64,000 nt of DNA from Candidatus Latescibacterota bacterium. GTDB lineage: Bacteria; Latescibacterota; UBA2968; UBA8231. Location of the stretch: the NCBI GenBank assembly GCA_965248355.1, contig OZ252098.1, forward strand, positions 960,001-1,024,000. Reading direction: 5' to 3'. Positions 14,692-64,000 of this stretch are shown in pieces (the stretch's first letter is position 1; every line of letters begins with the position of its first letter). The notes beneath the pieces were generated by a model, which worked only from the letters and a program-made list of their open reading frames with translations, ran no database searches and was not told the DNA's origin. The position numbers were made by a program, and so were the translations under genes.

Positions 14692-14692
14692 G

Positions 14693-15281: not shown

Positions 15282-16645
15282 AAGACCGGGCCCCGGGGCG
15301 GACTCTCGACCGGCCGATCCTGCGCCTGGCGATTCCCGGTCTGCTGGCATCCGTATCCGTGCCCCTCATCGGGATCGCGGATACGGCCATGATCGGCCAT
15401 CTCCCCGAGGTGGCTCTGCTCGGTGCGGTGGCCACTGCCAGCGTGCTCTTCGACTTCATGTTCTGGAGCGCCGGCTTCCTGCGCATGGGGACGACGTCGA
15501 TCGTCTCCCAGCATCAGGGCGCCGGGGACCCTTCCGGCAGCGCCGCCGCTCTCTACCGCTCCCTGCTGCTCGCCGCCGCCCTCGGCCTGGTCGCCCTGTC
15601 GATGCGAGGTCCGATTTCCGAGGTCGGTTTCACTCTGGTGGGGGGGTCGGAACAGGTACAGCTCTGGGGGCGGGCCTACTTCGATGTGCGCGTGCTCAGC
15701 GTGCCCCTGGTCCTGGCAACCATGGTCCTCAACGGGTTCTTCCTCGGCTCGGCCAATGCCTGGGCCCCACTTGTGGTGACCGTGGTGACCAATGTCGTCA
15801 ACATCGGCGCCGACTACGCCCTGATCTTCGGTCACTGGGGAGCGCCCGAGCTCGGTGTCATCGGTGCGGCCTGGGCCTCGGTGCTGGCCAGCGCCACCGG
15901 GCTCGCCGTGGGTGGGGCCGTTCTCCTCTTCCTCTATCGAGGGACGATCTTCGGCTCCAGACCCCAGGCCCTGTTCGACACGGAGAGGCTGAGGCACATG
16001 CTCTCCACGAACCTCAATCTCTGCGGCCGCACCCTGTGCCTGTTGTTCGCCCAGTTCCTCATGATAGGGCTGGTGTCACGAATGGGGGAGGTGCCGCTGG
16101 CGGCGCACGCCGTCGTCTGGCAGCTGTGGTCCCTGGTCAGCTACGGAGTGGACGGCTTCGCCCACGCCGCCGAGGCCCTGGTGGGCAACCGGCTCGGGGC
16201 CGGCGATCCGCTGCTGGCCCGGCGGTACGCACGGCGGATCCTCACTTGGGGCGGGGGGATCGGACTGATGTTCAGCGGCATCTACGCCGTCGGCCTCGGG
16301 CGGATCGCCGGCTGGTTCACCCCGCACACCGAGGTTGTCGCCGCCGCCGCGTCCCTCAGCGTCGTGATCGCCCTCGTGCAGCCCCTGAATGCGTTGGTCT
16401 TCGTGCTCGACGGGATCTTCATCGGGGCCAACGACACGGCCTTTTTGTTCCGGGCCATGGCGCTGGCCGCCTTCGCCGGGTTCGTCCCCGCGGCGATCGT
16501 GCTCGTGGTCTTTCTCGAGGGCGGGCTGCTCTCCGCCTGGGGCGCCTACGTCCTCCTCATGGTCGGGCGTTTTCTGCCGCTCGCCCGGAGATACCGCAGC
16601 CAGGATTGGCTGCGCACCTTTCTGCCCACTTCCGCGGGAGACTGA
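15278..16645 (+). CDS. MATE family efflux transporter (DinF-like)
   Basis: ILRLAIP, DTAMIGHL, GFLRMGTT, LGVIGAAWAS, DGFAHAAEALVG. Confidence 0.92.
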   Translation: MKDRAPGRTLDRPILRLAIPGLLASVSVPLIGIADTAMIGHLPEVALLGAVATASVLFDFMFWSAGFLRMGTTSIVSQHQGAGDPSGSAAALYRSLLLAAALGLVALSMRGPISEVGFTLVGGSEQVQLWGRAYFDVRVLSVPLVLATMVLNGFFLGSANAWAPLVVTVVTNVVNIGADYALIFGHWGAPELGVIGAAWASVLASATGLAVGGAVLLFLYRGTIFGSRPQALFDTERLRHMLSTNLNLCGRTLCLLFAQFLMIGLVSRMGEVPLAAHAVVWQLWSLVSYGVDGFAHAAEALVGNRLGAGDPLLARRYARRILTWGGGIGLMFSGIYAVGLGRIAGWFTPHTEVVAAAASLSVVIALVQPLNALVFVLDGIFIGANDTAFLFRAMALAAFAGFVPAAIVLVVFLEGGLLSAWGAYVLLMVGRFLPLARRYRSQDWLRTFLPTSAGD

Positions 16646-47949: not shown

Positions 47950-48714
47950 ATGTGCGCATCCCAAATCGGGGCTCAGCTCTACACCGTGCGCGACTTCCTG
48001 AAGACGCCGGACGGCATCCGGGACAGCTTCGGGCGAGTGGCGGAGATGGGGTACGAGGCCGTGCAGTGCTCGGGCCTCGGCCCGATCGATGCGGCGGAGC
48101 TGAGAGCCCTCGCCGACGAAGCCGGTCTGAAGATCGCGGCCACCCACATCGACTTCGACCGCATCCGCCGGGAGCCCCAGGCGGTGATCGAGGAGCACCA
48201 GCTCTGGGGTTGCCGCCACGTGGCCATCGGCGGCCTGCCCGGGGAGTACCGCCACGCCGAAGGATTTGCGCGTTTCGCCCGGGAGGCTTCAATCCTGGTG
48301 CGGCCGCTGATCGACGCCGGCCTGACCTTCAGCTACCACAACCACAGCTTCGAGCTCGAGCGTTTCGGGGAGCGGACGGGCCTGCAGATCCTGGCCGAGG
48401 AGAGCGACCCGGACACGTTTTCCTTCGAGGTCGACACCTACTGGATCCAGCACGGAGGCGGCAACCCGGTCACCTGGATCGAGCGCCTGAGGGACCGCAT
48501 GCACGTCGTTCACCTGAAGGATCTGGCCATGAAGGGCGGCGACCAGCGTTTCGCTGAAGTGGGAGAGGGCAATCTGGAATGGCCCGCCATCCTCGCCGCC
48601 TGCCGCGCCACCGCGATCCAGTGGTACCTGATCGAGCAGGACCGGTGCGACGGCAATCCCTTCGACAGCCTGAAGGTCAGCCTCGACAACCTGCGGGCCA
48701 TGGGCCTGCACTAG
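47950..48714 (+). CDS. Sugar phosphate isomerase/epimerase (TIM barrel)
   Basis: GAQLYTVRD, YHNHSFE, EVDTYW, HLKD, IEQD. Confidence 0.9.
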   Translation: MCASQIGAQLYTVRDFLKTPDGIRDSFGRVAEMGYEAVQCSGLGPIDAAELRALADEAGLKIAATHIDFDRIRREPQAVIEEHQLWGCRHVAIGGLPGEYRHAEGFARFAREASILVRPLIDAGLTFSYHNHSFELERFGERTGLQILAEESDPDTFSFEVDTYWIQHGGGNPVTWIERLRDRMHVVHLKDLAMKGGDQRFAEVGEGNLEWPAILAACRATAIQWYLIEQDRCDGNPFDSLKVSLDNLRAMGLH

Positions 48715-49945
48715 TGGTCAATCCACTTAGAATTGCGGAACAAGAGTGGCAGCCGTATCCTTTTTCCCCATCCCCTTTGTTGGAAAAGGAGTACGGCGTT
48801 GCCCAAGAAGAGATACATCGTCACTCTCACAGCCGAGGAGCGCACCGGGTTGCGCGATCTGATCTCCAAGGGGAAAGCGGCGGCTTTCAAGCAGCGGCAT
48901 GCGCGCCTTCTCCTGAAGACGGATCAAGGACCGCAGGGAGAGGGCTGGACCGACGAACGGATCGGGCAGGCGCTCGAGGTCCATCCCAGCACGGTCGAGC
49001 GTCTGCGCAGGCGATTCGTCGAAGAAGGCCTGGAGGCCGCCCTGCAGCGCAAGGAGCAGAAGAATCGCCGGGCCAAGAAGATCGACGGGGAAGGCGAGGC
49101 TCGTCTCGTCGCGCTGGCCTGCAGTCCGCCGCCGGAGGGGAGAAAGGGCTGGACCCTCCGATTGCTGGCCGACCGCCTGGTGGCCTTGGAAGTGGTCGAC
49201 CGGGTCAGCCCGGAAACCGTCCGAAAGACACTAAAAAAAACGACTTGAAGCCCTGGCGGCAGGAAATGTGGTGCCTGCCGGGCGCCCCCAATGCCGCCTT
49301 CGTCTGTGCCATGGAGGATGTGCTGGATGTTTATACCCGGCCCTACGATCCCCAACATCCCACGGTCTGCCTGGACGAGACCAGCAAACAACTGGTGGGC
49401 GAGGTGCAGGCCCCTCGGCCGGCGATTCCGGGCCATCCGGCCCGGTATGATCATCATTATGTCCGCCAGGGCGTGGCCAACGTCTTCATGATGCTGGAAC
49501 CGCTCACCGGCCGCTGCCACGTCCAGGTCACGCAGCAGCGCACCAAGAAAGATTGGGCTCGGGTGATGAAAGACCTGGTCGACCGCTACTACCCGGAGGC
49601 CGAGCGCCTGACCTTGGTCATGGACAACCTGAGTTCGCACCAGAAGGCGGCGTTGTACGATGTCTTTGCGCCGGCCGAGGCCAAACGCATCGCCGACAAG
49701 ATCGACATTCATTTCACCCCGAAACGGGGCAGTTGGCTCAACATGGCCGAAATCGGGTTGAAGATGCTGTCCCGGCAGTGTCTGGACCGACGCATCGCAA
49801 CGATTCAGCAACTGAGCCAACAGGTCCAGGCTTGGCTGTCGCAACGCGAGAACAGCCAGGCCCCGGTCAAATGGCGATTCACCACCGAGAAGGCGCGCAT
49901 CAAGCTGCACCGCCTCTATCCAGCATTGTTACCTGGATGAACCAC
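48714..49945 (+). mobile_element. IS630-family insertion sequence
   Basis: Flanked by CTAG/CTAG (TA duplication); ends GTGGTCAATCCA and revcomp GTGGTTCATCCA. Confidence 0.92.
48799..49940 (+). CDS. IS630 transposase, two ORFs joined by a -1 frameshift at the A8 run (49233-49240)
   Basis: ORF A HTH (CSPPPEGRKGWTLRLLA...TLKK), ORF B DDE (CLDE, VMDNL, SWLNMAE). Confidence 0.92.
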
Positions 49946-51155: not shown

Positions 51156-51187
51156 ACCACACCACAAGAAGGTCAGGAGCGTGTCGA

Positions 51188-51958
51188 ATTCTGAAGTCTT
51201 TCGACCTGGACGGCCGGATCGTGGCCGTCACCGGCGCCGGCCGGGGGATCGGCCGCACCATCGCCCTGGACGCGGTGCGTGCCGGCGCCCGCGTCGCCGT
51301 GGGCAGTCGGACGGTCAGCGAGTTGGAGAGCCTCAAAGGACGCATCGAGGCCATGGGAGGGGAGTGCTTCGTCCAGGTTCTCGACGTGACCGACGTCGCC
51401 TCTATCGAGGCCTTCTTCGAGGCCGTGGACGACCACTACGAGGGCCTCCATGTCCTGGTCAACAACGCCGGGTACAACAAGCTGGGGAAGATCCTGGACT
51501 ACGACGAGGCTCTCTACGACCTGATCGTCGACACGAATCTGAAGAACGTGTTCTTCTGCAGCCAGGCGGCCGCGAAGCGGATGATCGCCAGGAACATCCG
51601 CGGCAGCATCGTCAACATCTCGTCCCAGGCGGGCGTGGTGGGGGCACCGGAGCGCGGGCCCTATTCGGGAGCCAAAGGCGGGGTCAACAACCTGACCCGG
51701 ACGGCGGCCGCCGAGTGGGCGGAGCACGGAATCCGGGTCAACGCCGTGGCCCCCACGGTGACCCGGTCGCCTCTGGCTCAGAGGGCCATGGAAGACAGCC
51801 AGGCCTTTGCCGACGCCGTGAAGACCAAGAACCTGCTGCGCGGCGACCTGGCCGAGCCGGAGGAGATCTCGGCTCCCGTGATCTTCCTGGCCTCCGATGC
51901 TGCCAGCATGATCACCGGCCACGTCCTCGTGGTCGACGGGGGGTGGACCATCGTCTGA
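51188..51958 (+). CDS. Short-chain dehydrogenase/reductase
   Basis: VTGAGRGIG, LVNNAG, YSGAK, RVNAVAP, VDGG; start codon unresolved. Confidence 0.9.
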   Translation: MLKSFDLDGRIVAVTGAGRGIGRTIALDAVRAGARVAVGSRTVSELESLKGRIEAMGGECFVQVLDVTDVASIEAFFEAVDDHYEGLHVLVNNAGYNKLGKILDYDEALYDLIVDTNLKNVFFCSQAAAKRMIARNIRGSIVNISSQAGVVGAPERGPYSGAKGGVNNLTRTAAAEWAEHGIRVNAVAPTVTRSPLAQRAMEDSQAFADAVKTKNLLRGDLAEPEEISAPVIFLASDAASMITGHVLVVDGGWTIV

Positions 51959-51999
51959 GGCAGGGTCCAGGCGACGTCGAGCCTGCTCTCCGCCGGACG

Positions 52000-53145
52000 T
52001 CACGGCCGCTCTACTCTCCCAGGTGCGGTCCTCCGCAATCCCTCGCTCTGCCAGCCGCGGCGGTCGTCCAGCATCCCGTCCAGGTCGCGAAGGGCGGAGG
52101 CTACGGCGGCCCGGGGTTCTCGGGCCAAGTCGGCCAGGAGTTCCACGAGTCCGGCCGCGTCCGCCACGGAAATCGCCTCCGGCCGCAGCCCATCCCCGCC
52201 GTGGTTGTGGTAGTTCTCGAGAGGCAGGGCTACCGCTCCCGCGGTGATACCGGCGCGGCACAAGGCCGTCGCTTCGCAGGTCCCACCGTCCATCAGCCGC
52301 CTCTGGTACCGGAATCCGGGCCGCTTCCTCCGCAGTCCTTCGGCCGCCGCGGCCAGGGCTGCGGTGACGGAAGCGTCGAAGACCCAGCGCCGGTCACCGA
52401 CGCGGATGACGGGGCCTTGGCCGAGGGGAGCGCCGGCGCGGCAGGAGGAGCATTCGATGTTGACGTAGAGGGCGCCGGGGTCGAGATGCCCGCCGTCCGC
52501 GGCGGCGAGCATCCCGCCGAAGCCGGTCTCCTCGGCCCGGGTCAGCAGAACGCCGATCCCGTTCCCGTCGGTGTCGTCGGCGCGCAGGAGTTCGAGGACC
52601 GAAAGAGCCACGGCCGCACCGGCCAGATCATCGCAGGCGCGGCCCCGAAGCCTCCGTCCGGACACCTCGAAGCCGGGCAGGTCCCAGGTGGCGAAGGTCC
52701 CTCCTGCCTCGGCCGCGGGAGCCGGGCCGTCCAGGCGCACCCGAAAGGCGGGCCGTGTTCCGGCGTCGCCCGGGACTCCGTCCTCCAGAAAGGCCATGAC
52801 CCGGCCGCTGGCGATCGGCTCGCGGGACTCGTGGCCGTAAGCGAGCACGCGGGCCCCCCGGGTCAACTCGGTTGGAATGCCGCCCAGGGAATGAAAGAAC
52901 CAGTCGCCGCCGTCCCGAGCTGCCAGGGACAGCCCGGGATGGTCGAGGTGAGCGGTGAGGACGATCCCTGGCGGCTCCTTGCCAAGGCGCAGATGGAGGT
53001 TTCCGAAAGGGTCGGCCAGGCAGATCAGGTCGGGCCGCTCTTCGACGAATCGCCGAATCTCCGAGAGGACCAGGTGCTCGTGAAAGGGCGCGGTGGGAAT
53101 GGGGAGGAACCGCCGCGCCATGTGCAGATAGAGATCGGTGTTCAA
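52000..53145 (-). CDS. M42/M20-family metallopeptidase
   Basis: DPFGNL, TAHLDHPG, RACDDLAG, TRAEETG, GGTCEA, NYHN. Confidence 0.82.
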   Translation of the reverse strand: MNTDLYLHMARRFLPIPTAPFHEHLVLSEIRRFVEERPDLICLADPFGNLHLRLGKEPPGIVLTAHLDHPGLSLAARDGGDWFFHSLGGIPTELTRGARVLAYGHESREPIASGRVMAFLEDGVPGDAGTRPAFRVRLDGPAPAAEAGGTFATWDLPGFEVSGRRLRGRACDDLAGAAVALSVLELLRADDTDGNGIGVLLTRAEETGFGGMLAAADGGHLDPGALYVNIECSSCRAGAPLGQGPVIRVGDRRWVFDASVTAALAAAAEGLRRKRPGFRYQRRLMDGGTCEATALCRAGITAGAVALPLENYHNHGGDGLRPEAISVADAAGLVELLADLAREPRAAVASALRDLDGMLDDRRGWQSEGLRRTAPGRVERP

Positions 53146-53213
53146 GGGGCTCGCCTTCCGCGGAGGAGAACTGGTTCGAAAGGGTATCCGGCGGCGGTCC
53201 GGGGTCAAGCGGA

Positions 53214-53243
53214 TTGCTCCCGGGGAATCGCGTCGACTACCTT
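53214..53243 (+). promoter_or_regulatory. Putative promoter of paralog 1
   Basis: TTGCTC-18 nt-TACCTT; same layout before paralog 2. Confidence 0.55.
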
Positions 53244-53278
53244 GAGACGCTCCTGGCGGTCAGGAGGCCCGAGGCCGA

Positions 53279-55435
53279 GTGAGAAGAGGGATTCCACAGG
53301 AGTACAGCGACCATCTGGCCACGCGCCGGGAGCGCGTGCTGGGAGGGAGCGGCGAGCGCCTCTCCTTCCGCGCCTTCTGGGTCGGCGGCTTCCTGGCGTT
53401 CTTCCTGGCCGTGGGCGCCCCCTACGGCAACATGATCATCCGCGGGTCCTACATGGCCCTCGACTTCAGCACCCCCGGGGCCATCTTCCTGTTCCTCTTC
53501 CTGATCGGTCTTCTCAACTGCGCTTTCAAGCTCGCCCGTCAACCTTCCGTGGCCATCGGCCTCGCCGGCTCGGCCACGGCGGCGTGGCTGGTGGTCTACG
53601 GGCCGGCCATCACCGACCTCGACTTCTACTCTCCGGGTCTGATGCTGGCCACCTTCCTGGTGCTGACCACGTGGCTCAACCTGCCCGTGGTGCTCCGCGG
53701 CGGAAGCCTGGCCCTGAACCGCTCGGAGCTGGTGCTGGTCTACGCCATGCTGCTCATCGTCTCGGCCTTGTGCACCATGGGCCTGGGCGAGCAGATCCTG
53801 CCCGTCATCACGGCGATCTTCTACTTCGCCTCACCGGAGAACCAGTGGACGGAGAAGCTCTTTCCCCATCTGCCGTCGCGGGCCATGGTCGACGACGGCA
53901 CGGACAGCCGGCTGTTCTACGAGGGACTGTCCGGTCCGGAGGACGTGATACCGTACGCGTCCTGGGTGGAGCCCCTTCTGTGGTGGGGGATCTTTCTGCT
54001 GGCCCTGTACGTGATGATGGTCTCGGTGGCGGTGATTCTGCGCCGCCAGTGGATGGAGCGGGAGCGACTGGCCTACCCGATCGCGCAGGTGGGCCTGTCC
54101 ATGATCCGCTCAGAGCACCCCGACCAGGCGGTCAACGGGTTCTTCAAGCAGCCGGTCATGTGGATGGGGGCGGCCCTGCCCCTTGTCGTCGGCAGCCTGA
54201 AGGCCCTGAACCGCTACTACTCCGCAGTGCCGGTCCCGCCTACGACATGGTCCCTGCCCTTCCTGGGCTACCAGACCCTGCAGCTGACGATCAGCTTCGC
54301 CATGCTCGGGTTCTCCTACTTCATCAACGCCAACATCGCCGCCGGCATCTGGTTCTTCCACCTGTTCTCGAAGGTGGAGAAGCACGCGCTTCTGTTCACG
54401 GGGCTGCAGTCGACCCAAAAAATCACCTTCGGCGTCTCCGACTACCCCTTCCTCGGCTACCAGGGGGTGGGAGCGCTGTTGGCCATGGTGGTCGTCGGCC
54501 TGTGGGTGGGCCGCGAGCACTATTGGCGGGTGCTGCTCAAGGCCGTCGGCCGCGCCCCCGAGGTCAGGGACGACGACGAGATCCTCTCCTACCGGAGCGC
54601 CGTGGCCGGCGGCGCGGGCGGCACTGCCGTCATGGCGTGGTGGCTGTGGTTCATGGGGACTCCCCTGTGGGTGGCCCTGGTGTTCGTCGTCCTGGCCATT
54701 CTGATCTTCATCGGCATCACCCGGATCGTGACCGAGGCCGGCCTGGCGGCCATCCGCGCGCCGATGATCGCAAGCGAGCTGGTGGTCCAGGGGATGGGGT
54801 CCTCCCTGGTTGGCCCCGCGGGGGTGATGAACCTCTCGCTGACCTACATCTGGGCTGCCGACATCCGCGTCTTCGTCATGGCCACGTCCTCCAACGCGCT
54901 GAAGATGATCGAGGAGATGGAGCCCCGGAACCGCCGCATCGTGTTCTGGGCCATGATCGCCGCCATGTTCATCGGGGCCGCCGGGTCCTTGTGGATGATC
55001 TTCCACATGGCCTACCGCCACGGGGGCATCAACCTGGAGAGCTGGTTCTTCCAGGGGCTGCCCCGGACCGCGTACGACGCCGCCGTGCGCAACATCGAGC
55101 CCCAGGGGGCCTACTGGCCGGGGCTGGGCTTCTTCGGCGGAGGCATCGGCGCCATGGTGGCCATGATGTGGCTGCGCCAGCGCCTGCCCTGCTGGCCCGT
55201 CCACCCCATCGGCTTCCCCATAGGCGCCAACAGCATGATGAACTACGTCTGGTTCAACGTCTTCGTGGCGTGGATCGTCAAACGCACGGTGCTGCGCTAC
55301 GGGGGTGCCAGCGCCTACCACGGCAGCCAGCACTTCTTTCTGGGACTGATCGCCGGCCAGGTCCTGTGCAACGGCTTGTGGCTGGTGATCGACTACTTCA
55401 CCGGCAAGGTGGGCAACTCCATCTTCTGGGTATGA
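53279..55435 (+). CDS. Polytopic membrane protein, OPT-like (probably DUF6785/DUF6784 family), paralog 1
   Basis: 718 aa, many TM segments, LNRSELVLVY, RRQWMERERLAYPIAQ, WPVHPIG; GTG start after GGAGG. Confidence 0.85.
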   Translation: MRRGIPQEYSDHLATRRERVLGGSGERLSFRAFWVGGFLAFFLAVGAPYGNMIIRGSYMALDFSTPGAIFLFLFLIGLLNCAFKLARQPSVAIGLAGSATAAWLVVYGPAITDLDFYSPGLMLATFLVLTTWLNLPVVLRGGSLALNRSELVLVYAMLLIVSALCTMGLGEQILPVITAIFYFASPENQWTEKLFPHLPSRAMVDDGTDSRLFYEGLSGPEDVIPYASWVEPLLWWGIFLLALYVMMVSVAVILRRQWMERERLAYPIAQVGLSMIRSEHPDQAVNGFFKQPVMWMGAALPLVVGSLKALNRYYSAVPVPPTTWSLPFLGYQTLQLTISFAMLGFSYFINANIAAGIWFFHLFSKVEKHALLFTGLQSTQKITFGVSDYPFLGYQGVGALLAMVVVGLWVGREHYWRVLLKAVGRAPEVRDDDEILSYRSAVAGGAGGTAVMAWWLWFMGTPLWVALVFVVLAILIFIGITRIVTEAGLAAIRAPMIASELVVQGMGSSLVGPAGVMNLSLTYIWAADIRVFVMATSSNALKMIEEMEPRNRRIVFWAMIAAMFIGAAGSLWMIFHMAYRHGGINLESWFFQGLPRTAYDAAVRNIEPQGAYWPGLGFFGGGIGAMVAMMWLRQRLPCWPVHPIGFPIGANSMMNYVWFNVFVAWIVKRTVLRYGGASAYHGSQHFFLGLIAGQVLCNGLWLVIDYFTGKVGNSIFWV

Positions 55436-55590
55436 TGACCAGCCGCGGTCGAGCGCCATCGAGGTACGGCCGTCGGGGCCGGGCACCACCTGAGGGTTGC
55501 GGGACATGGCGCAATCCGGGTTCCGTCGGGCCCTCACGCGGGCACCGATGTCACCAGGGCTATCCGGTCGACGCCGCCGGGCCGGGTGAA

Positions 55591-55620
55591 TTGCACTGGG
55601 AGAACCGCGGCGACTACCTT
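55591..55620 (+). promoter_or_regulatory. Putative promoter of paralog 2
   Basis: TTGCAC-18 nt-TACCTT. Confidence 0.55.
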
Positions 55621-55658
55621 GAGCCGCTCTCCTGCGTGGTACGGAGGCCAGGGACGAG

Positions 55659-57815
55659 TTGAAGAGAGGGATACCCCAGCAGTACGAGGACCATCTCTCC
55701 GCGCGCCTCGAGCGCATGCTGGGCGGGAGCGGCGAGCGCCTCTCCTTCCGTGCCTTCTGGATCGGCGGCTTCCTCTCCTTCTTCCTGGCCGTGGGCGCCC
55801 CCTACGGCAACATGATCATCCGGGGCTCCTTCATGGCCCTCGACTTCAGCACCCCCGGGGCCATCTTCCTGTTCCTGTTCCTCATCGGTCTTCTCAACAG
55901 CGCCTTCAAGCTCGCCCGGCGGCCTCCCGTGGCCCTCGGTCTCGCCGCCTCGTCCACGGCGGCGTGGCTGGTGGTCTACAGGCCGGCCATCACCGACTTC
56001 GACCTCTACTCCCCCGGTCTGATGATGGCCACCTTCCTGGTGGTGACCACCTGGCTCAACCTGCCCGTGGTGCTCCGCGGCGGCAGCCTGGCCCTGAACC
56101 GCTCGGAGCTGGTCCTGGTCTACGCCATGCTGGTCATCGTCTCGGCCCTGTGCACCATGGGCCTGACCGAGCAGATCCTGCCCATCATCACGGCCATTTT
56201 CTACTTCGCCTCGCCGGGGAACCAGTGGGCCGAGAAGCTCTTCCCGCACCTGCCGGAGCGGGTGATGGTCGACGACGGCACGGACAGCCGCCAGTTCTAC
56301 GAGGGCCTCTCCGGTCCGGAGGAGACGGTTCCCTATGGGGCCTGGGTGGAGCCGCTCGTGTGGTGGGGGATCTTCCTGCTGGCCCTGTACGTGATGATGG
56401 TCTCGGTAGCGGTGATTCTGCGCCGCCAGTGGATGGAGCGGGAGCGCCTGGCCTACCCGATCGCGCAGGTGGGCCTGTCCATGATCCGCTCCGAGTACCC
56501 CGACCGGGCGGTCAACGGGTTCTTCAAGCAGCCGGTCATGTGGCTGGGGGCGGCCCTGCCCCTGGTCACCGGCAGCCTGAGGGGCCTGAGCTTCTATGAG
56601 GCGGTCGTGCCCACGACGCGTCTGGAGTGGCATCTCCCCTTCATCGGCCGCCAGACCCTGCATCTGAGCGTCAACTTCGCCGTCCTCGGGTTCTCCTACT
56701 TCATCAACGCCAACATCGCCGCCGGCATCTGGTTCTTCCATCTCCTCTCGACTGCGGAAAAGCAGTTGCTCATCCTCACCGGGCTGCAGTCGTCCCAGAA
56801 GATCGGTCTCGGCGTCTCCGACTACCCCTTCCTCGGGTACCAGGGGGTGGGGGCGCTGCTGGCCATGGTGGTGGTCGGCCTGTGGGTGGGCCGCGAGCAC
56901 TACTGGCGGGTCCTGCGCAAGGCCGTCGGCCGGGCCCCCGAAGTCCGCGACGACGACGAGATCCTCTCCTACCGGGGCGCCGTGGCCGGGGCCCTGGGAG
57001 GCACCGCCGTCATGACGGCCTGGCTGTGGTACATGGGGACCCCCTTGTGGGTAGCCCTGCTCTTTCTGCTCGTGGCGGTCCTGATCTTCATCGGAATCAC
57101 GCGGATCGTGACCGAGGCCGGCCTGTCGGTCGTCCGCGGGCCGATGATCGCCGGCGACCTCGTGGTCCAGGGAGTCGGTTCCTCCCTGATCGGCCCCGCG
57201 GGGGTGATGAACCTCGCCTTGGCCCACGTCTGGGCCGCCGACATCCGTGTCTTCGTCATGGGCACGGCCTCCAACGCCCTGAAGATGATCGAGGAGATGG
57301 AGCCCCGGAACCGCCGCACCGTGTTCTGGTCCATGATCGCCGCCCTCTTCATCGGCGCCGCTGGCTCCATGTGGATGATCTTCCACATGGCCTATCTCCA
57401 CGGGGCCATCAACCTGAACGGCTGGTTTTTCCAGGGGCTGCCTAGGTACGCCTACGATGCGGCCCTGCGCAACATGGAGCCCCAGGGGACGTACTGGCCC
57501 GGGCTGGGCTTCTTCGGCGGCGGGGCCGGCGCCATGGTCACCCTCATGTGGCTGCGCCAGCGCCTGCCCTGGTGGCCCGTCCATCCCATCGGTCTATCCA
57601 TCGCCGCCACGCCCATGATGAACCGCCTCTGGTTCAACGTCTTCCTGGCCTGGGCGGTCAAGCGAGCCGTCCTGCGGTACGGCGGCGCCACCGGCTACCA
57701 GAGGAGCCAGCCCTTTTTTCTCGGGCTGATCAGCGGCCAGGTCCTGTGCAGTGGAGGCTGGCTGGTGATCGACTACTTCACCGGCAGGGTGGGCAACTAC
57801 CTTTACGAGATATGA
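55659..57815 (+). CDS. Polytopic membrane protein, OPT-like (probably DUF6785/DUF6784 family), paralog 2
   Basis: 718 aa, colinear and highly similar to 53279-55435; TTG start after GGAGG. Confidence 0.85.
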   Translation: MKRGIPQQYEDHLSARLERMLGGSGERLSFRAFWIGGFLSFFLAVGAPYGNMIIRGSFMALDFSTPGAIFLFLFLIGLLNSAFKLARRPPVALGLAASSTAAWLVVYRPAITDFDLYSPGLMMATFLVVTTWLNLPVVLRGGSLALNRSELVLVYAMLVIVSALCTMGLTEQILPIITAIFYFASPGNQWAEKLFPHLPERVMVDDGTDSRQFYEGLSGPEETVPYGAWVEPLVWWGIFLLALYVMMVSVAVILRRQWMERERLAYPIAQVGLSMIRSEYPDRAVNGFFKQPVMWLGAALPLVTGSLRGLSFYEAVVPTTRLEWHLPFIGRQTLHLSVNFAVLGFSYFINANIAAGIWFFHLLSTAEKQLLILTGLQSSQKIGLGVSDYPFLGYQGVGALLAMVVVGLWVGREHYWRVLRKAVGRAPEVRDDDEILSYRGAVAGALGGTAVMTAWLWYMGTPLWVALLFLLVAVLIFIGITRIVTEAGLSVVRGPMIAGDLVVQGVGSSLIGPAGVMNLALAHVWAADIRVFVMGTASNALKMIEEMEPRNRRTVFWSMIAALFIGAAGSMWMIFHMAYLHGAINLNGWFFQGLPRYAYDAALRNMEPQGTYWPGLGFFGGGAGAMVTLMWLRQRLPWWPVHPIGLSIAATPMMNRLWFNVFLAWAVKRAVLRYGGATGYQRSQPFFLGLISGQVLCSGGWLVIDYFTGRVGNYLYEI

Positions 57816-60800
57816 CGGGACCCGGCTCCAGATTCCTTGTTGCGGCCATGGCCTGGCTGCTGCTGACAGCCCCGGCCTCTGCGGACGGCCCCGACTTGTG
57901 GGCTGTCGCCGATGAGGGGGAGCGTCTGCGGGCGAGCGTGGAGTACCTGTCCACGGTCGGCTCCCGCATCAGCGGACACGAGGGCGCCCAGCGGGCCTCG
58001 GACTGGATCGAGCGGCAGCTGTCGACGCTGGGGTTGGGCCCGGTGCACCGAGAGTCGTTCCAGATCACCGTGCCGGTGGAGTTGGGCGGGCGCAGCCGCC
58101 TGCAGGTCCTCGAGACCGGCGAGGAGCTCGACATCTACGGGCTGTGGCCGAACGGCCCGCGAACGACGACCACCCCGCCCGGAGGCACGGAAGGCCTGCT
58201 CACCTGGGCCGGGGGCGGCGAGTACGCCGACTTCGAGGGGCGGCCGCTGCAGGGCCGCGTGGTGCTGATGGAGTTCAACACCTGGGACCGCTGGGTCCGG
58301 CTGGCGGCCCTCGGGGCCCGGGCCGTGATCTTCATCGAGCCCGAAGAGACCTCCTACCCGCAGACCGAGGACAAGAGCCTCATGGTGCCGGTGGACGTGC
58401 CGCGGTTCTGGATCGACGCAGAGGCGGGCCGGCGGCTTCAGCGGAGATTGCAGGGCGGAGACGAGATCGGCGTCCGCCTGCACAGCCGGATGGACTGGCT
58501 CGAGCGGCCCTGCTCCAACCTCTGGGTCGAGATCAGCGGCGCCGATACGGACCTGGCCGGGCAGCGGATCGTCGTTCAGAGCTACTTCGACGGGACCTCC
58601 ATCGCGCCCTCCCTGGCGCCCTCGGCCGAGGTCTCCAGCGGCGCGGCTGCGATGCTGGAGCTGGCCCGGTACCTGCGGGACCATCCGCCCGCCCGGACGG
58701 TGGTTCTCCTGCTAACGGGCTCCCACTTCCAGGACCGGGCGGGGATCGTCGACTTCCTTGAGCGTCACACCCGCAAGTCCGACTACTACGCTCCTCTCAC
58801 AGACTCGATGGCCGTCGATCTCTTCCTCGGTCTCGACCTGTCCACCAAGACGGATCAGGTGGCCATCTGGAACAACACATCCAGCTTCGATCTCAAGCGG
58901 TTCTACGTCCCCTTCGGGCGGCGGTACACCAGGTACGCCGAGGAGGCGGCCGTCGAACTCGGACGGGCCGGCGAGCCATTGCTGTTGAACGGGATCAGTC
59001 CCATCCGCGGAATGGACTGGTCCACCTTCGTCCCCGACGGCGTCCGCGTCGACGCCCGCATGGCCCTGCGCGCCGGCCAGGTCGCCCTCTCCTTCGTCAC
59101 CGCTCACGACGCCCGCTTTCCCGTGGCCACCCCCCTCGACACGCCCGAGCGCATGAATCTGGACAACCTCCGGAGTCAGTCGCGCTTCCTCAACCGGGTA
59201 CTCTCCCGGTCCTTCGACGACCCGGACCTGTTCACCGGACTCGAGGACTTCGATCCCGTGCTCAAGGACGAGCTGCGCACGCACACCGTTCGGGTGCGGG
59301 GCTTTCCGCGCCGCAGCCAGATCCCCGACCGGCCGGTGGCCGACGCCCTGGTGATGGTGGGGCGGTGGACGCACAAGGGCGTGAACACGAGCCGCGCGTA
59401 CCTCACCGGCGAGCTGGGCGTCGCCACCGTGTCGGGACTGGTCGTCGGGGCCACCTCGGTGGTGGCCCATGTCCTCGACCGGGAGACGGGAGAAGTCGTC
59501 TACGCGCCGGACCTGAGCGAGCGCGCCCAGAAGCACCACGGCAAGCCGCTCGCGAGCGGCCGCATGAACTGGAGCATCCGCTGGAACAAGGACAGCAAGC
59601 CCATCGTCGTGTTCCCGAGCATCCAGAGGACCCTCTTCGGGCTGACCCATCCCAACCAGCTGATCGGGCTGGCCTCCCTGAAGATGATCGACAGCGGCGG
59701 CATCGCGCCTCGCCAGTTCGGGTACGCCTTCGGCCACACCATGAGCAGCAACCTCTGCGTCGTCTTCGCGCCCCAGGAGGCGGCCGCCGAGGATCCCCGC
59801 CTGAAGATGCTCTTCGGGGACATGCTGCTCATCAACAGCCCCGGGGGTACGTCGGAGAAGGAGGCCAAGGGCACCGGCTACGACCTGGCGGTGGACGACC
59901 TGCTGCCCTCCGAGCTCTTCGCCCTGCGGGACACCTGGAGGCTCAACGACGCCCGTCTGGCCACGATGCGCTCCCACGCCATTGAGAACCAGCGAATCAG
60001 CCGGTTGCACGAGGCGGGCCGGCGGTTCCTGGCCTCCGCCGAGAAAGCGCTCGAGGAGGGCCGCTGGCGCGACTACGTGGCCGAGGTCCGGTCGGGCCTC
60101 GGGGTGACCCTGCGCGCCTATCCCCAGGTGAAGGGAACCCTCAACGACGTGATCAAGGGCATCGTCTTCTTCCTGGCCCTGGTCATGCCCACGGCCTTCT
60201 TCGGCGAGCGCCTGCTCTTCGCGGCGGCCGACATCCGCTGGCAGCTCGGGGGCTTCGCCCTTCTGCTCCTGATCGTGTGGACGCTGATCTCCCAGGTCCA
60301 TCCGGCCTTCGACATCGCCCATCCCCTGATCATCCTGCTGGCCTTCTTCATCATGGTCATGGCCGTCTTCGTGATGGCCATGGTCTCGAGCCGGTTCAAC
60401 CGGTTCCTCAAGGAGTACCAGGCCGAGAAGGCGAAGGTCCACCAGACCGACATCAGCCGGGTCAGCGCCACCTACGCCGCTTTCATGCTCGGCATCTCGA
60501 ACATGCGCAGGCGCAGGCTGCGCACCGGACTGACCCTGCTCACCCTGACCTTGCTCACCTTCACGGTCCTGTCCTTCACCTCCTTCCGGCCGGAGATGTG
60601 GTATTTCGTCTTTCCCCTCCGCCACGAGGGATCGTACACGGGGGCCCTGATCCGGGACCGCGGCTGGAGCTCTCTGTCGGAGACCACCCTCGAGTACGCC
60701 CGCTCCCACTTCGAGGAGCATGGCCAGGTGGTCCCGCGGAACTGGTACATCACCTACGACGACGAGGAGAAGAAGTACACGGAGATCCGGCGGGACAGCC

Positions 60801-62263
60801 TCATCGTGCGGGCTACCGGCCTGCTCGGGGTGAGCTCCCGGGAGCAGCGGGTGACCGGGCTGGCCTCGGCCCTTACGGCGGGGAGATGGTTCCAGGACGA
60901 TCACGAATCCACCTGCCTGCTCTCGGACGGCATGGCCGAGGGGCTGGGAATCGGTCCCGGAGATGTGGGCCGGGCCCAGGTCCAGGTCTTCGGCCAGCGG
61001 CTGACCGTGGCCGGGGTCTTCTCGTCCGAGGCCTTCGACGAGGTTCGCGATCTCGACGACGAGCCCCTGAGTCCGGCGGACTTCCAGCTCTCGAGCATGC
61101 AGGCCCTGGGTCCGGTGGAGGGGCCGCAGATGCAGGTGCAGGAGGAGGAGGAGACCTACGAGGTCAGGCCCTTCGTCCACCTCGACCCGGCGAACGTGCT
61201 CATCCTGCCCTACGAGACCCTGAAGGTCTCCTTCGGCGACCTGCGCTCCGTGGCCATCCGGTTCGACGAGGGCGCCCCGGCCCGGGCCCTGATCGAGGAC
61301 TTCCTGCAGCGCATCTCGGGCACGATCTTCGCCGGCCTGCCGGACGAAGAGGGCCGCATCGACGTCGTGTCGTACACCTCTCTGGGCGGCACCTCGGTCG
61401 AGGGTCTGGCGGCCCTGACCGTGCCCATGCTGATCGCGGCCCTCATCGTCCTCAACACGATGATGGGCGCCGTGTACGAGCGCTTCCGGGAGATCGGCAT
61501 CTACTCCTCGGTGGGGCTGGCGCCCATGCACATCGCCCTGCTGTTCATCGCCGAGGCCTGCGTGTACGCGGTCATGGGGGTGACCCTGGGCTACCTGATC
61601 GGCCAGATCCTCGGAAGGTCGCTGGTGCAGTTCGACCTGCTGGGCGGCATGAACCTGAACTACTCCTCCTATGCCGCCATTCTCTCGGCCTGCATGGTCA
61701 TGGGCGTGGTGCTCCTGTCCACCATCTATCCGGCCCGCGTCGCCTCCCGGTCCGCCGTTCCCGACACGGTTCGGCGGTGGCGGCCGCCGCCGCCCGACGG
61801 CGATCGCTGGGCCTTCGACTTTCCCTTCATGGTGGGACAGAGCGAGGTAGTGGGGATCTGCGGGTTCCTGGCCAACTTCCTCAGCGCCTACAGCGAGGAG
61901 TCGATCGGCGACTTCTACGCCGACAAGGTGCGGATCACCACCGAGGAGACGCGCGCGGGCCGGGAGTACGCCGTGCAGCTGCTGCTGTGGCTGGCCCCCT
62001 TCGACATGGGCGTGAGCCAGTTCCTGCAGATCGAGCTGGCGCCCACCTCCACACCCGGCGTCTGCGACGTGCAGATCTACATCCACCGCCTGAGCGGCCA
62101 GGACACCTACTGGCAACGCGTCAACCGACGCTTCGTCAACCACCTGCGCAAGGAGTTCCTGATCTGGCATACCCTCGACACGGAGTCCAAGGCCTTCCAC
62201 GACCAGAGCGCGAGAGAGCGGATGGCGGCTGAGGCCACGACAGCAGCGGAGGCCACGACCTAA
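57812..62263 (+). CDS. Large membrane protein: signal peptide + PA/M28-like domain + MacB/FtsX-like permease
   Basis: ATGA overlap with paralog 2; APASA cleavage site; AMLELAR M28 helix; NMRRRRLRTGLTL; LNTMMGAVYERFREIGIYSSVGL FtsX motif; 1483 aa. Confidence 0.85.
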   Translation: MTGPGSRFLVAAMAWLLLTAPASADGPDLWAVADEGERLRASVEYLSTVGSRISGHEGAQRASDWIERQLSTLGLGPVHRESFQITVPVELGGRSRLQVLETGEELDIYGLWPNGPRTTTTPPGGTEGLLTWAGGGEYADFEGRPLQGRVVLMEFNTWDRWVRLAALGARAVIFIEPEETSYPQTEDKSLMVPVDVPRFWIDAEAGRRLQRRLQGGDEIGVRLHSRMDWLERPCSNLWVEISGADTDLAGQRIVVQSYFDGTSIAPSLAPSAEVSSGAAAMLELARYLRDHPPARTVVLLLTGSHFQDRAGIVDFLERHTRKSDYYAPLTDSMAVDLFLGLDLSTKTDQVAIWNNTSSFDLKRFYVPFGRRYTRYAEEAAVELGRAGEPLLLNGISPIRGMDWSTFVPDGVRVDARMALRAGQVALSFVTAHDARFPVATPLDTPERMNLDNLRSQSRFLNRVLSRSFDDPDLFTGLEDFDPVLKDELRTHTVRVRGFPRRSQIPDRPVADALVMVGRWTHKGVNTSRAYLTGELGVATVSGLVVGATSVVAHVLDRETGEVVYAPDLSERAQKHHGKPLASGRMNWSIRWNKDSKPIVVFPSIQRTLFGLTHPNQLIGLASLKMIDSGGIAPRQFGYAFGHTMSSNLCVVFAPQEAAAEDPRLKMLFGDMLLINSPGGTSEKEAKGTGYDLAVDDLLPSELFALRDTWRLNDARLATMRSHAIENQRISRLHEAGRRFLASAEKALEEGRWRDYVAEVRSGLGVTLRAYPQVKGTLNDVIKGIVFFLALVMPTAFFGERLLFAAADIRWQLGGFALLLLIVWTLISQVHPAFDIAHPLIILLAFFIMVMAVFVMAMVSSRFNRFLKEYQAEKAKVHQTDISRVSATYAAFMLGISNMRRRRLRTGLTLLTLTLLTFTVLSFTSFRPEMWYFVFPLRHEGSYTGALIRDRGWSSLSETTLEYARSHFEEHGQVVPRNWYITYDDEEKKYTEIRRDSLIVRATGLLGVSSREQRVTGLASALTAGRWFQDDHESTCLLSDGMAEGLGIGPGDVGRAQVQVFGQRLTVAGVFSSEAFDEVRDLDDEPLSPADFQLSSMQALGPVEGPQMQVQEEEETYEVRPFVHLDPANVLILPYETLKVSFGDLRSVAIRFDEGAPARALIEDFLQRISGTIFAGLPDEEGRIDVVSYTSLGGTSVEGLAALTVPMLIAALIVLNTMMGAVYERFREIGIYSSVGLAPMHIALLFIAEACVYAVMGVTLGYLIGQILGRSLVQFDLLGGMNLNYSSYAAILSACMVMGVVLLSTIYPARVASRSAVPDTVRRWRPPPPDGDRWAFDFPFMVGQSEVVGICGFLANFLSAYSEESIGDFYADKVRITTEETRAGREYAVQLLLWLAPFDMGVSQFLQIELAPTSTPGVCDVQIYIHRLSGQDTYWQRVNRRFVNHLRKEFLIWHTLDTESKAFHDQSARERMAAEATTAAEATT

Positions 62264-62267
62264 GGCC

Positions 62268-64000
62268 ATGGCCGAGAACGGAAAGCAGAGCCTGCGCCAG
62301 CGGCTGCGCAGGAGCCAGTGGCAGGAGGTGGAGGAGTACCGCGCCCTGCTGGAGCCCGCCGAGCAGTTCGAGAGCGGCTTCACCATGCGCACCATCATCG
62401 GCGTCATCTTCATCTCCCTGGTCATGACCCCGGGGGAGATGTACCTGGGCCTGGTCACCGGCGGGGGCATCGGCGCCGCGGCCCAGTGGGTGACGGTGAT
62501 CCTCTTCCTGGAGGTGGCCAAGCGGTCCTTCACCTCCCTGCGCCGCCAGGAGATCTACCTGCTGGTGTACGTGGCCTCGGCCCTGGTGGCCCGGGAGGAG
62601 GGGGCCTTCCTCGACCTGCTCTTCCGCCAGTACTTCGTGCGCTCCGCCGAGGCCGAGCAGTTCGGCATCTCCAAGCTGCTGCCGTACTGGTACGTGCCCC
62701 ATCCCGAGTCGCCCGCCCTGGCGGCGCGCACCTTCCTGCACCGCGACTGGCTGTGGCCCATCGCCCTGCTGATCATGGGAACCATCGTCGGCCGCATAAG
62801 CTGGTTCACCTCCGGGTACCTCCTCTTCCGCCTGACCTCGGACCGCGAGCGCCTGCCCTTTCCCACGGCCCCCATGTCGGCCCTCTCGGCCATGGCCCTG
62901 GCCGAGGAGAGCGGCGGGGAGAAGGAGACCTGGAAGTGGCCCGTGTTCTCCCTGGGAGGGGTCATGGGCGCCCTCTTCGGCATGATCTACGTGGGCATCC
63001 CTACCCTCACCGAGGTCCTGCAGGGAAAGAAGATCACCCTCATCCCGATCCCCTTCTGGGACCTCACGCCGTACTTCGGCAACCTGCTGCCAGCCGCGCC
63101 CATAGGGATCACCCTCCACCTCGGGATCATCTTCGGCGGCCTCCTGGCCCCGTTCTGGGGGATCGTCGGGTCCAGCGCCGGCGTGATCATGCACACCGCG
63201 GTGAGCCCCATCCTGCACGCCCACGGCCTGCTGCCGAGCTGGTCCCTGGGCATGGACCTGATCGGCACGTCCATCGTCACCGGGATCGACTTCTGGAGAG
63301 CCTTCTCCATCGGCATCACCATCGCCGTCACTATCATCAGCTTCTACCAGCTCTTCGCTACCGCCCGTCAGCGGCGGCTGTCAACGCGCGACGAGTTCCT
63401 CGGGGAGCGGCGCGAGTACCCGCGGACCTGCGTCCACGACGGCTGCAACGCCCCCTCCCAGGTGCGCGGCTACTGCCTCAAGCACCTCGGCCGGGGGGAC
63501 TTCAACCTCTGGGTCTGCGTCGTCCTCTTCGCCATGGCCGCCCTCTACCCCATCGTGCTCGCCAAAACCCTCTTCCCGGCCCTGGTGACGACCGGCCTGC
63601 TCGTCGTGTTCTTCGGCATCGCCTTCGTGTACGCGCCCATCATGTCCTTCGTCTCGGCCCGTCTCGACGGCCTCATCGGCCGCGAGGTGTCGATCCCGTA
63701 CATCAACGAGGCCATCATCTTCCTCACCGGGTACCGGGGCGTCGACATCTGGTTCGTGCCCTTCCCGACCCGCAACTACGGAGGCCACGCCGAGGGCTTC
63801 CGCGTCGTCGAGCTGACGGGCATGCGCTTCACCAGCCTGCTGCAGGCGGAGCTGTTCATGCTGCCCATCGTCTTCGGCGTGAGCCTCATGTACTGGAGCT
63901 TCCTGTGGCGCCTCGGCCCGATACCGTCCGAGAGCTATCCCTACGCGCAGCTCATGTGGCCGCTGCAGGCCTTCAACCAGGCCTTCTACTACTCCAGCAC
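62268..64000 (+). CDS. OPT/YSL-family oligopeptide transporter-like protein, 3'-partial
   Basis: Open frame from ATG 62268 to the window end (absent from ORF track): GFTMRTIIG, MYLGLVTG, LRRQEIY, DRERLPFP, many TMs. Confidence 0.85.
   Translation, partial: MAENGKQSLRQRLRRSQWQEVEEYRALLEPAEQFESGFTMRTIIGVIFISLVMTPGEMYLGLVTGGGIGAAAQWVTVILFLEVAKRSFTSLRRQEIYLLVYVASALVAREEGAFLDLLFRQYFVRSAEAEQFGISKLLPYWYVPHPESPALAARTFLHRDWLWPIALLIMGTIVGRISWFTSGYLLFRLTSDRERLPFPTAPMSALSAMALAEESGGEKETWKWPVFSLGGVMGALFGMIYVGIPTLTEVLQGKKITLIPIPFWDLTPYFGNLLPAAPIGITLHLGIIFGGLLAPFWGIVGSSAGVIMHTAVSPILHAHGLLPSWSLGMDLIGTSIVTGIDFWRAFSIGITIAVTIISFYQLFATARQRRLSTRDEFLGERREYPRTCVHDGCNAPSQVRGYCLKHLGRGDFNLWVCVVLFAMAALYPIVLAKTLFPALVTTGLLVVFFGIAFVYAPIMSFVSARLDGLIGREVSIPYINEAIIFLTGYRGVDIWFVPFPTRNYGGHAEGFRVVELTGMRFTSLLQAELFMLPIVFGVSLMYWSFLWRLGPIPSESYPYAQLMWPLQAFNQAFYYSS

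Follow-up and report, generated by a model that had tools for sequence, protein, structure and literature searches.

The locus described here raises the question of how a giant MacB/FtsX-type membrane protein with a peptidase-fold head, encoded without a gene for an ATP-binding cassette (ABC) ATPase beside it, could work together with permeases that appear distantly related to the oligopeptide transporter (OPT) family. It lies in a 64,000-nucleotide stretch of the genome of a Candidatus Latescibacterota bacterium (assembly GCA_965248355.1, contig OZ252098.1, positions 960,001 to 1,024,000 of the forward strand; this whole stretch is called the window), a genome of 67% G+C. The cluster consists of four co-directional membrane genes, g1 to g4, with the following window coordinates:

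53279 to 55435, plus strand: g1, encoding 718 amino acids (aa)
55436 to 55658, plus strand: spacer between g1 and g2, 223 nt
55659 to 57815, plus strand: g2, 718 aa, a tandem paralog of g1
57812 to 62263, plus strand: g3, 1483 aa counted from the ATG, ending in TAA
62268 to 64964, plus strand: g4, 898 aa, the last 964 bases of which lie outside the window (part within the window, 62268 to 64000)

Our preferred answer, to which we give a probability of about 0.45, is that the four genes specify a conserved module of the inner membrane, which captures and imports peptides or similar oligomers rich in nitrogen. The g1-type, g3 and g4 proteins would assemble into one complex, in which the periplasmic head of g3, helped by a loop domain of g4 (PDZ-bearing in many orthologs), would bind peptide ends and pass the substrate to the OPT-type permeases. 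These would import it by proton-motive force, and a neighbouring cytoplasmic M42/M20 aminopeptidase would then degrade it. The MacB-type membrane part of g3 would serve as a scaffold, possibly as a conformational link between the head and the permeases, and not as an ATP-driven pump.

The gene order is the first line of evidence. The g3 ATG lies within the TGA of g2, giving ATGA at 57812-57815, and the TAA of g3 is followed by a gap of only 4 nt (ggcc, 62264-62267) before g4. An earlier interpretation made from the letters of the window (the sequence-only reading) had reported four co-directional membrane genes with this overlap and this gap, and all of its coordinates proved correct. We compared the order at 36 loci from species-representative genomes, counting linkage where the flanking DNA sufficed, and at 80 metagenome loci from a scan that was seeded with the C-terminal domain of g3 and reached down to ~30% identity (78 with a g3 match). 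The results showed that g3 stands directly upstream of g4 at all 32 genome loci with upstream DNA, and that g4 follows within 3 kb downstream on the same strand at 68 of the 71 metagenome loci with at least 1.5 kb of downstream sequence. A g1-type gene adjoins at 26 of the 29 genome loci with room for it (23 upstream of g3, 3 downstream of g4; absent at loci L065-L067), and a g1-like gene was found at 30 of the 39 metagenome loci with room upstream. Homologs thus co-occur and cluster strongly, which is what the sequence-only reading had needed from a neighbourhood analysis across genomes.

The proteins are also joined covalently in some relatives. Among the 120 listed g3 homologs, eight, of 1900-2140 residues, are fused to DUF6785, the Pfam family of g1 and g2; in the three fusions scanned, DUF6785 and DUF6784 come directly after the C-terminal domain of g3. 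Frames of 2100-2300 residues turned up repeatedly in a survey of 168 genomes of the phylum, which detected the g3 head in 155 (E≤1e-10) and g4 in 162, and DUF6785 in 33 of the 41 genomes with a completeness of 90% or more. The family f10 stands apart, with the g3 head in 0/13 genomes, DUF6785 in 0/8 and weak g4 matches only, in 8/13 (E ~1e-4 to 1e-5). Genomes carry 2 to 4 or more diverged copies of the module; the genome examined here holds four g3+g4 pairs, one of which has a DUF6785 gene between g3 and g4. The fourth g3/g4 module of this genome (L033) has transposases of the Mutator family and of the rve type on its flanks. Gene fusion, together with adjacency over deep divergence, is the main argument for the proteins working together physically, and from synteny and gene fusions we infer that the four of them may form one machine.

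What kind of protein stands at the centre of this putative machine? The g3 orthologs, 48-92% identical, occur in Latescibacterota and in metagenome-assembled genomes labelled Gemmatimonadota. The parts of g3 are as follows (TM, transmembrane segment):

57812 to 57883, plus strand: signal peptide, residues 1-24, ending ASA before DG (putative cleavage site, by the A-x-A rule)
57899 to 59101, plus strand: M28-like domain with an inserted PA domain, residues 30-430, with a remodelled metal site
59102 to 60181, plus strand: second part of the ectodomain, residues 431-790, of unassigned fold, ending in a predicted helical stalk
60140 to 60400, plus strand: three additional hydrophobic helices that precede the MacB unit, residues ~777-863
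60524 to 61750, plus strand: MacB-type unit, residues 905-1313, with TM1, periplasmic core domain (PCD) and FtsX TM2-4 including an ERFREIG loop
61754 to 62260, plus strand: C-terminal domain, residues 1315-1483 (169 residues), presumably cytoplasmic

The head was recognizable only with family information. In a single-sequence search, residues 30-430 reached the aminopeptidase structure 2ek8 at E 0.025 only, and the Pfam M28 match is sub-threshold (16.4 bits against a cut-off of 21.3); three g3 paralogs of the genome pass that cut-off, with 23.1, 27.3 and 42.9 bits. A profile of this region from 25 orthologs matched 2ek8 at E 3.2e-14 and Bacillus subtilis YwaD (6hc6) at E 1.4e-10, followed by the inactive relatives transferrin receptor 1 (~2e-3) and nicalin (0.03). 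The alignments to 2ek8 and 6hc6 then served to locate the M28 ligand columns, the residues of which we tallied in 49 g3 homologs, taking the roles of the six positions (zinc ligands His, Asp, Glu, Asp and His, plus a catalytic Glu) to be those of the Aeromonas aminopeptidase. The first His is Tyr in 47/49 homologs (His in 2/49), the bridging Asp is Glu in 49/49, the catalytic Glu is His in 49/49, the Glu ligand is Phe in 47/49 and the last His is Trp in 48/49, while the second Asp is kept in 49/49. Four of the six canonical positions have thus been replaced, and at a fifth Glu stands in for Asp. The fusion of M28, MacB and FtsX parts named in the sequence-only reading accordingly stands as to its PA/M28 fold and its MacB_PCD/FtsX module, and its head should not be termed a peptidase. 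By homology the head has an M28 fold; judged from these columns it is not a canonical di-zinc peptidase, and we do not file it as an M28 peptidase. As the replacement residues are themselves invariant, selection acts on the pocket, for binding or for another kind of chemistry.

In the membrane part of g3, Pfam places MacB_PCD at residues 905-1073 (30.9 bits, cut-off 27) and FtsX at 1202-1313 (45.2 bits, cut-off 25.5), and against the PDB the unit matches MacB (5nik, E 3.1e-6), YtrF (1.1e-5) and then LolC, FtsX and LolF, so that TM1, PCD and TM2-4 follow in the order of type VII ABC permeases. Ahead of this unit, hydropathy segments at 777-805, 804-836 and 829-863 mark the three extra helices, the number and topology of which are predicted from them. 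Residues 431-790 show 57% mean column identity over 27 orthologs; this part gave no PDB sequence match with E below 0.3 and only unnamed ESM Atlas clusters below 0.9. The C-terminal domain is the best-conserved part of g3 (69% mean column identity over 30 orthologs), and it had no PDB match with E below 0.1 and no ESM Atlas match. As a side observation, the open frame of the g3 paralog in the second module (L031:8860-14586; G000:C1:1441791-1447517, minus strand) spans 1908 aa and exceeds the other copies by ~400 residues at its N-terminal end.

A complete MacB unit and a conserved cytoplasmic domain would be superfluous for a plain membrane anchor, and this bears on the view that there is no machine at all. 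In that view g3 would be a stand-alone, membrane-anchored periplasmic exopeptidase or binding protein, and the OPT-like proteins would be independent importers that are merely co-regulated with it. Degradative enzymes are commonly co-regulated with their importers, and Glu273, His305, Asp342 and Asp260 of g3, all invariant, could form a mononuclear metal site. The g1-type adjacency is not obligatory either, given L065-L067 and the second module of this genome, the g1-type partner of which lies ~470 kb away. However, separate proteins would hardly be expected to be fused covalently, as g3 and a DUF6785 permease are in several lineages, nor to keep g3 and g4 adjacent, here across only 4 nt, down to ~30% identity. 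We consider this view unlikely.

If g3 is a MacB/FtsX-type protein, is an ATPase encoded with it? No Walker A or LSGGQ motif is present in g1-g4, the C-terminal domain of g3 included. The whole genome has 26 FtsX matches and ~60 ABC_tran matches above cut-off. Grouped into loci, the FtsX matches fall into 13, four of the g3 type and nine ordinary. Eight of the nine ordinary loci have ABC_tran within ~4 kb (the exception lies at 3185733), compared with 0/4 of the g3-type loci within 19 kb; for the window copy the nearest ABC_tran is ~184 kb away. A tblastn search with four of the genome's own MacB/LolD-type ATPases likewise had no match within 20 kb of the g3 copies here. Up to 10 kb on each side, ABC ATPase-like matches occur at two of the 36 related genome loci (L043 and L061) and at six of the 80 metagenome loci, and none of them adjoins g3 or g4. 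The ATPases of L043 and L061 are unsupported as parts of the module, a minus-strand fucosidase gene separating them from g3. No cognate ABC ATPase, fused or adjoining, was thus found for g3, which is a MacB/FtsX-type protein without an ATPase gene in cis; the sequence-only reading had noted that the window holds none, and the four genome copies extend that observation.

These counts also bear on a rival explanation, in which g3 is a genuine type VII ABC mechanotransducer with its ATPase encoded elsewhere. ATP-driven movements of its periplasmic domains would then pull out, present or expel a substrate, with the OPT-like proteins as a conduit or as partners of the substrates. Both FtsX and MacB_PCD are intact and score above their Pfam cut-offs, and possible donors exist among the ~60 ABC_tran matches of the genome. 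In known systems the loop between TM2 and TM3 of FtsX is the coupling helix that contacts the ATPase, and g3 retains the ERFREIG of this loop. A type VII transporter working with a periplasmic hydrolase partner is moreover on record in YbbAP-TesA (PMC12646458). A recruited ATPase nevertheless sits poorly with the absence of ABC ATPase-like matches near 4/4 copies here, 34/36 genome loci and 74/80 metagenome loci, when ordinary FtsX loci of the same genome have an ATPase close by in 8/9 cases, and g3's own conserved C-terminal domain would occupy the inferred ATPase docking position. At one distant metagenome locus (L146), two ABC ATPase genes do lie 2.4 kb downstream, yet they resemble FtsEX housekeeping neighbours. 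We regard a trans-encoded ATPase as possible, on balance doubtful.

The L146 locus itself (12798-16191) continues from its g4-like gene with a 215-aa open reading frame (ORF) and a PqqD-like (peptide-recognition) gene; then come an FtsX gene of 268 aa and a tandem pair of FtsE-like ATPase genes, with an M24 aminopeptidase gene farther on. The best match of the two ATPase genes and the small FtsX gene is the FtsEX locus of this genome (65, 59 and 45% identity, respectively), and the ATPases were set aside as module parts and read as housekeeping neighbours.

What, then, are the permeases beside g3? g1 and g2, 81% identical over 716 residues, match Pfam DUF6785 and DUF6784 (g1: E 2.1e-109, 366.8 bits, and E 2.2e-27, 95.6 bits; g2: E 6.1e-110, 368.5 bits, and E 7.4e-29, 100.3 bits), above both cut-offs (25 and 26.4 bits, respectively), and g4 has no Pfam or NCBIfam match of its own. 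BLASTP of g1 against g4 gave no significant match (best E 5.9), and shared motifs alone would therefore not prove kinship. A phmmer search with g4 found 898 relatives at E≤1e-3 among 1.84 billion representative proteins. Five of 15 relatives sampled pass the Pfam OPT cut-off (64.2, 55.1, 42, 38.3 and 29 bits against 25.8) and two more are sub-threshold; those that pass were reached from g4 at E 1e-39 to 1e-56. We next compared alignments as profiles: A1 is the g4 family, A2 comprises 40 DUF6785/DUF6784 sequences, and A4 contains 23 g4 relatives of ~630 residues, 17 of which match Pfam OPT at E≤1e-3. With hhalign, A2 aligned to A1 at 98.2% probability (E 3.7e-14, 576 columns) and to the OPT-rich A4 at 98.3% (E 1.4e-14, 573 columns), both comparisons spanning nearly the full length of both partners.

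The signature E-x-L-x-[FY]-P after an early transmembrane segment, which typifies OPT and Yellow-Stripe-like (YSL) proteins, cation-coupled importers of peptides or metal chelates with 16-17 transmembrane helices, is present in all three alignments: in A1, E194 and F198 are conserved to at least 90% and L196 and P199 are invariant; in A2, E262 and L264 are invariant and P267 reaches at least 90%; in A4, E174 reaches at least 90% and L176 and P179 are invariant. These positions are mutually aligned in the profile-profile comparisons, and so are the motif pairs to which the sequence-only reading had drawn attention (LNRSELVLVY with LRRQEIYLLVY, RERLAYP with RERLPFP). One g4 ortholog is annotated by one source as 'uncharacterized oligopeptide transporter (OPT) family protein'. 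On transitive and profile-profile homology we accept g1, g2 and g4 as putative, very divergent members of the OPT superfamily, in keeping with the original suggestion of three OPT-like proteins.

The g1-type proteins have features of their own. g1 and g2 carry a 54-residue hydrophobic insertion at residues 89-142, which is also found in two further paralogs of the genome and in 14/14 orthologs of A2, with 0 residues in the other 22 paralogs; it is specific to the module-associated (g3-linked) clade. In a quick maximum-likelihood tree (IQ-TREE) of 61 DUF6785 proteins, the g3-adjacent 718-residue type forms one clade with 100% SH-aLRT support (33 rows, including two unlinked paralogs of the genome). 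Of these two, the one at genome position 1916566 falls among g1-type genes from loci with a g4 similar to that of the genome's second module, and it is probably that module's partner gene, merely unlinked in this genome. The fused g3-DUF6785 forms make up a separate clade beside ordinary 650-residue paralogs, and a long branch leads to the copy inside the fourth module; therefore the association with g3 arose, or was kept, in several DUF6785 lineages.

The duplication that gave g1 and g2 is common to the three closest relatives (L034-L036), and a leader of ~110 nt was duplicated as well, upstream of g1 (53130-53290) and of g2 (55510-55670). The two copies have 79% mean column identity, a common CGACTACCTTGAG core and a GGAGGCC Shine-Dalgarno-like box. 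The leader may be a promoter or 5' untranslated region element carried along by the tandem duplication. An Rfam scan of 52800-64000, leaders included, gave no family, and a promoter/terminator scan of the cluster did no better than on shuffled sequence and placed no terminator between genes. The g1 copy of the leader overlaps the start of the divergent peptidase gene described below.

g4 differs from its remote relatives in two inserts. The first is a Cys/His zinc-ribbon-like piece at residues 388-406 (window 63429-63485; Cys-x-His-x2-Cys-x9-Gly-x-Cys-x2-His), found in 120/120 close g4 homologs compared with 1/57 remote relatives of at least 600 residues. The second is a loop of ~210 residues (~580-790) before the last helices, with twin DxDGDG acidic motifs (114/120 close homologs); within this loop many orthologs have a PDZ domain at about residue 750-790, and one shows a weak S41-N-like match (E 0.0073). 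The loop gave nothing below E 0.1 against the PDB. We place the zinc-ribbon-like piece tentatively in the cytoplasm and the acidic/PDZ loop in the periplasm.

Where does the cluster end, and which neighbours bear on its substrate? The flanking genes are:

52000 to 53208, minus strand: divergent M42/M20-like cytoplasmic aminopeptidase gene (Pfam Peptidase_M42 E 9e-16, M20 E 8.5e-6)
64972 to 66078, strand opposite to g4: LPG_synthase_TM gene, encoding a lysyl-phosphatidylglycerol (LPG)-synthase-like membrane protein, the first gene after g4

As the next gene is encoded on the other strand, the operon stops at g4 and has exactly four genes. The sequence-only reading had expected it to continue past 64000; only the remainder of g4 does so, and the downstream sequence completes g4 and then enters the LPG_synthase_TM gene, with neither an ABC ATPase nor an accessory gene found. 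An operon running on to an ATPase is ruled out by this convergent gene. A 1493-aa open frame in another frame (51181-55662) overlaps an SDR gene, the opposite-strand peptidase gene and g1; it gave no Pfam match over 51181-53280 and was dismissed as a high-GC artefact over most of its length. A DDE_3 transposase gene of an insertion sequence element lies at 48579-49940, 3 kb upstream of the cluster.

The M42/M20-like gene is a conserved neighbour outside the operon, with an ortholog in the same divergent position at 19/36 related genome loci and at 12/39 metagenome loci with enough upstream DNA, and an M20 peptidase gene stands beside the second module of the genome. PDZ domains are binders of peptide C-termini. 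A peptide substrate is favoured because the g3 head has the fold of N-terminal exopeptidases, g4 orthologs bear PDZ domains, and M42-like or M20 peptidases are neighbours.

The other members of DUF6785 point elsewhere. The 5.5-Mb genome has 26 DUF6785 genes (e.g. G000:C1:143419-145482 and 2806462-2808426; loci L010-L030), and counts in relatives across the phylum are similar or higher (at least 28 matches). For 23 of these genes we scanned the two nearest neighbours on either side (87 ORFs). They are mainly genes of glycan and sugar-acid catabolism (DUF4838, GlcNAc 2-epimerase, BNR sialidase-like proteins, enolase-superfamily dehydratases, lactonases, PcRGLX-like lyases, a nucleoside hydrolase and xylose-isomerase-like barrels). 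Type IX sorting tails mark some secreted proteins among them, and peptidase-like genes (C25, S9, transglutaminase-like) are few. Since the paralog contexts are mostly of carbohydrate type, the DUF6785 family as a whole is not peptide-specific. These data suggest a general, major and unstudied family of nutrient importers, and the family name gives no guide to the substrate of the g3-linked clade.

Several of our own results weigh against peptide import by a joint complex. Pfam gave no direct OPT match for g1, g2 or g4 at E≤0.1, and among solved structures there was no PDB sequence or profile match for g1, g4, the g4 family or the DUF6785 family. The other 22 DUF6785 paralogs stand mostly beside glycan and sugar-acid catabolic genes and seldom beside peptidase-like ones, and the M42-like neighbour is absent from 17/36 genome and 27/39 metagenome loci. 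In g3, the family-typical ERFREIG of the FtsX loop fits a trans-encoded ATPase equally well, and the conserved Glu273, His305 and Asp342 could still bind metal, so that catalysis by the head is possible. The expression evidence also belongs here, as the RNA contigs come from one study and may contain DNA, and a contig that spans a junction is no proof of a single transcript.

These contigs, from RNA libraries of four runs of that study, hold 37-45% of the region's sampled words and cover g2, g3 and g4 in the window. They run over the g2/g3 junction (57554-58418 and 57320-58052), the g3/g4 junction (61851-62506, 62224-62742 and 62043-62466) and the spacer between g1 and g2 (55355-55870). They are compatible with co-transcription and lend weak support to expression. 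Runs X5-X7 had small shares of these words and were left out of this evidence. One further contig (run X3, depth 2.9), which joins 54349 in g1 to 59861 in g3 with 15 foreign letters between, was discarded as most likely an assembly chimera.

Downstream of g4, many relatives carry additional genes, which raises the question of whether the module serves the cell envelope instead:

Loci L042, L044, L047-L051, L053, L055, L057, L059 and L062-L067 (e.g. L048:13273-20179), between the g4 ortholog and the LPG-synthase-like gene: eight-gene block of DnaJ-like, YbjN/CesT-like, PspA, amine oxidase, spermidine-synthase-like, DUF4178, unassigned and DUF350 genes, directly after g4

An envelope module might control a hydrolase in the periplasm, or recycle peptides of the cell wall or of lipoproteins. 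FtsEX acts on hydrolases by way of EnvC, which is catalytically dead, and a degenerate peptidase-fold domain on an FtsX-type protein recalls that arrangement; the PspA/DUF4178/DUF350 genes form a membrane-stress block, and the LPG-synthase-like gene is a constant downstream neighbour across loci. However, this last gene is on the opposite strand, and the PspA block is absent after g4 in the window genome and its closest relatives, for which reason it was set aside as a system part. The 2 to 4 or more diverged copies per genome also suit nutrient systems better than a housekeeping role in the envelope, a role that we find very improbable.

A bolder variant concerns the energy source. The OPT permeases could act as a motor that replaces the ATPase, their proton-driven cycle being coupled through the MacB unit and the cytoplasmic domain to movements of the head, with the hydrophobic hairpin of the g1-type proteins as a docking element. 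We think this improbable. If true, the assembly would be a mechanotransmission machine that draws on the proton-motive force and combines a secondary transporter with a type VII ABC scaffold.

The accepted view of MacB/FtsX-type units is that they transmit force in an ATP-driven manner. A unit that lacks a cis ATPase gene and is tied to secondary transporters would have to recruit its ATPase in trans, serve as a scaffold or obtain its energy from the permeases, and each of these answers would widen the known roles of type VII ABC modules and OPT transporters. In addition, DUF6785 and DUF6784, families of unassigned function, would join the OPT superfamily and, with 26 genes here and 28 or more matches in relatives, would rank as a main family for nutrient uptake in a phylum that is widespread and uncultured.

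How does the cluster compare with known systems? The sequence-only reading knew of no characterised system with such a layout, and our searches of open-access PMC and bioRxiv agree, having found no paper on DUF6785, DUF6784 or a combination of FtsX/MacB, M28 and OPT; NCBIfam has no usable family for the cluster proteins. The ADOP duplicated permeases (NCBIfam TIGR03434) match g3 weakly (E 6e-4, 18 bits, against a family cut-off of 622 bits). They too are FtsX-type permeases present in many copies and, according to the family description, without adjacent ATPase genes; they have two FtsX units compared with one in g3, and we know of none with an M28-like head or an OPT partner. To our knowledge, no characterised OPT is paired with or fused to a MacB-type protein.

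Among secondary transporters, g1, g2 and g4 resemble the OPT/YSL family (TC 2.A.67, PF03169; solved for barley HvYS1, PMC9691689) in an alignment of ~575 columns and in E-x-L-x-[FY]-P. In contrast to that family, g1 and g2 are filed in Pfam as DUF6785 plus DUF6784, and g4 bears the zinc-ribbon-like and ~210-residue inserts. A study of the family (Gomolplitinant and Saier 2011, PMC3061005) describes the characterised OPTs as cation symporters and the prokaryotic ones as biochemically uncharacterised, with genome contexts that often point to peptides and, in one subcluster, to oligosaccharides. The same paper records fungal OPTs with a fused S41 protease domain, a precedent for a protease-fold domain joined to an OPT permease. 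There the protease domain, of another family, is N-terminal on the OPT itself, whereas in this cluster a separate MacB-type protein carries the peptidase-fold domain; the PDZ of g4 orthologs is a domain type of S41 proteases.

Compared with PA-domain M28 aminopeptidases (Aneurinibacillus 2ek8 and B. subtilis YwaD 6hc6), the g3 head is alike, with the PA domain inserted at the same place. In its altered catalytic residues it comes nearer to the non-catalytic receptors, transferrin receptor 1 and nicalin, which are catalytically inactive, than to M28 enzymes. With the type VII ABC systems (MacB, LolCDE, FtsEX, YtrEF and YbbAP-TesA), g3 shares TM1, the periplasmic core domain and FtsX TM2-4, and YbbAP-TesA and FtsEX-EnvC likewise combine a type VII unit with a periplasmic hydrolase-fold component; in YbbAP-TesA the transporter is reported to present substrates to the hydrolase (PMC12646458). 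Unlike these systems, g3 has no cis ATPase gene or nucleotide-binding motif, its hydrolase-fold part is fused and not a separate partner, three extra helices and a conserved C-terminal domain are added, and its obligatory neighbour is an OPT-type permease and not an adaptor or ATPase. Judged by these comparisons, the parts are of known kinds and their combination is new: predicted OPT-type permeases locked to a MacB-type unit that has no ATPase gene in cis and bears a remodelled peptidase head.

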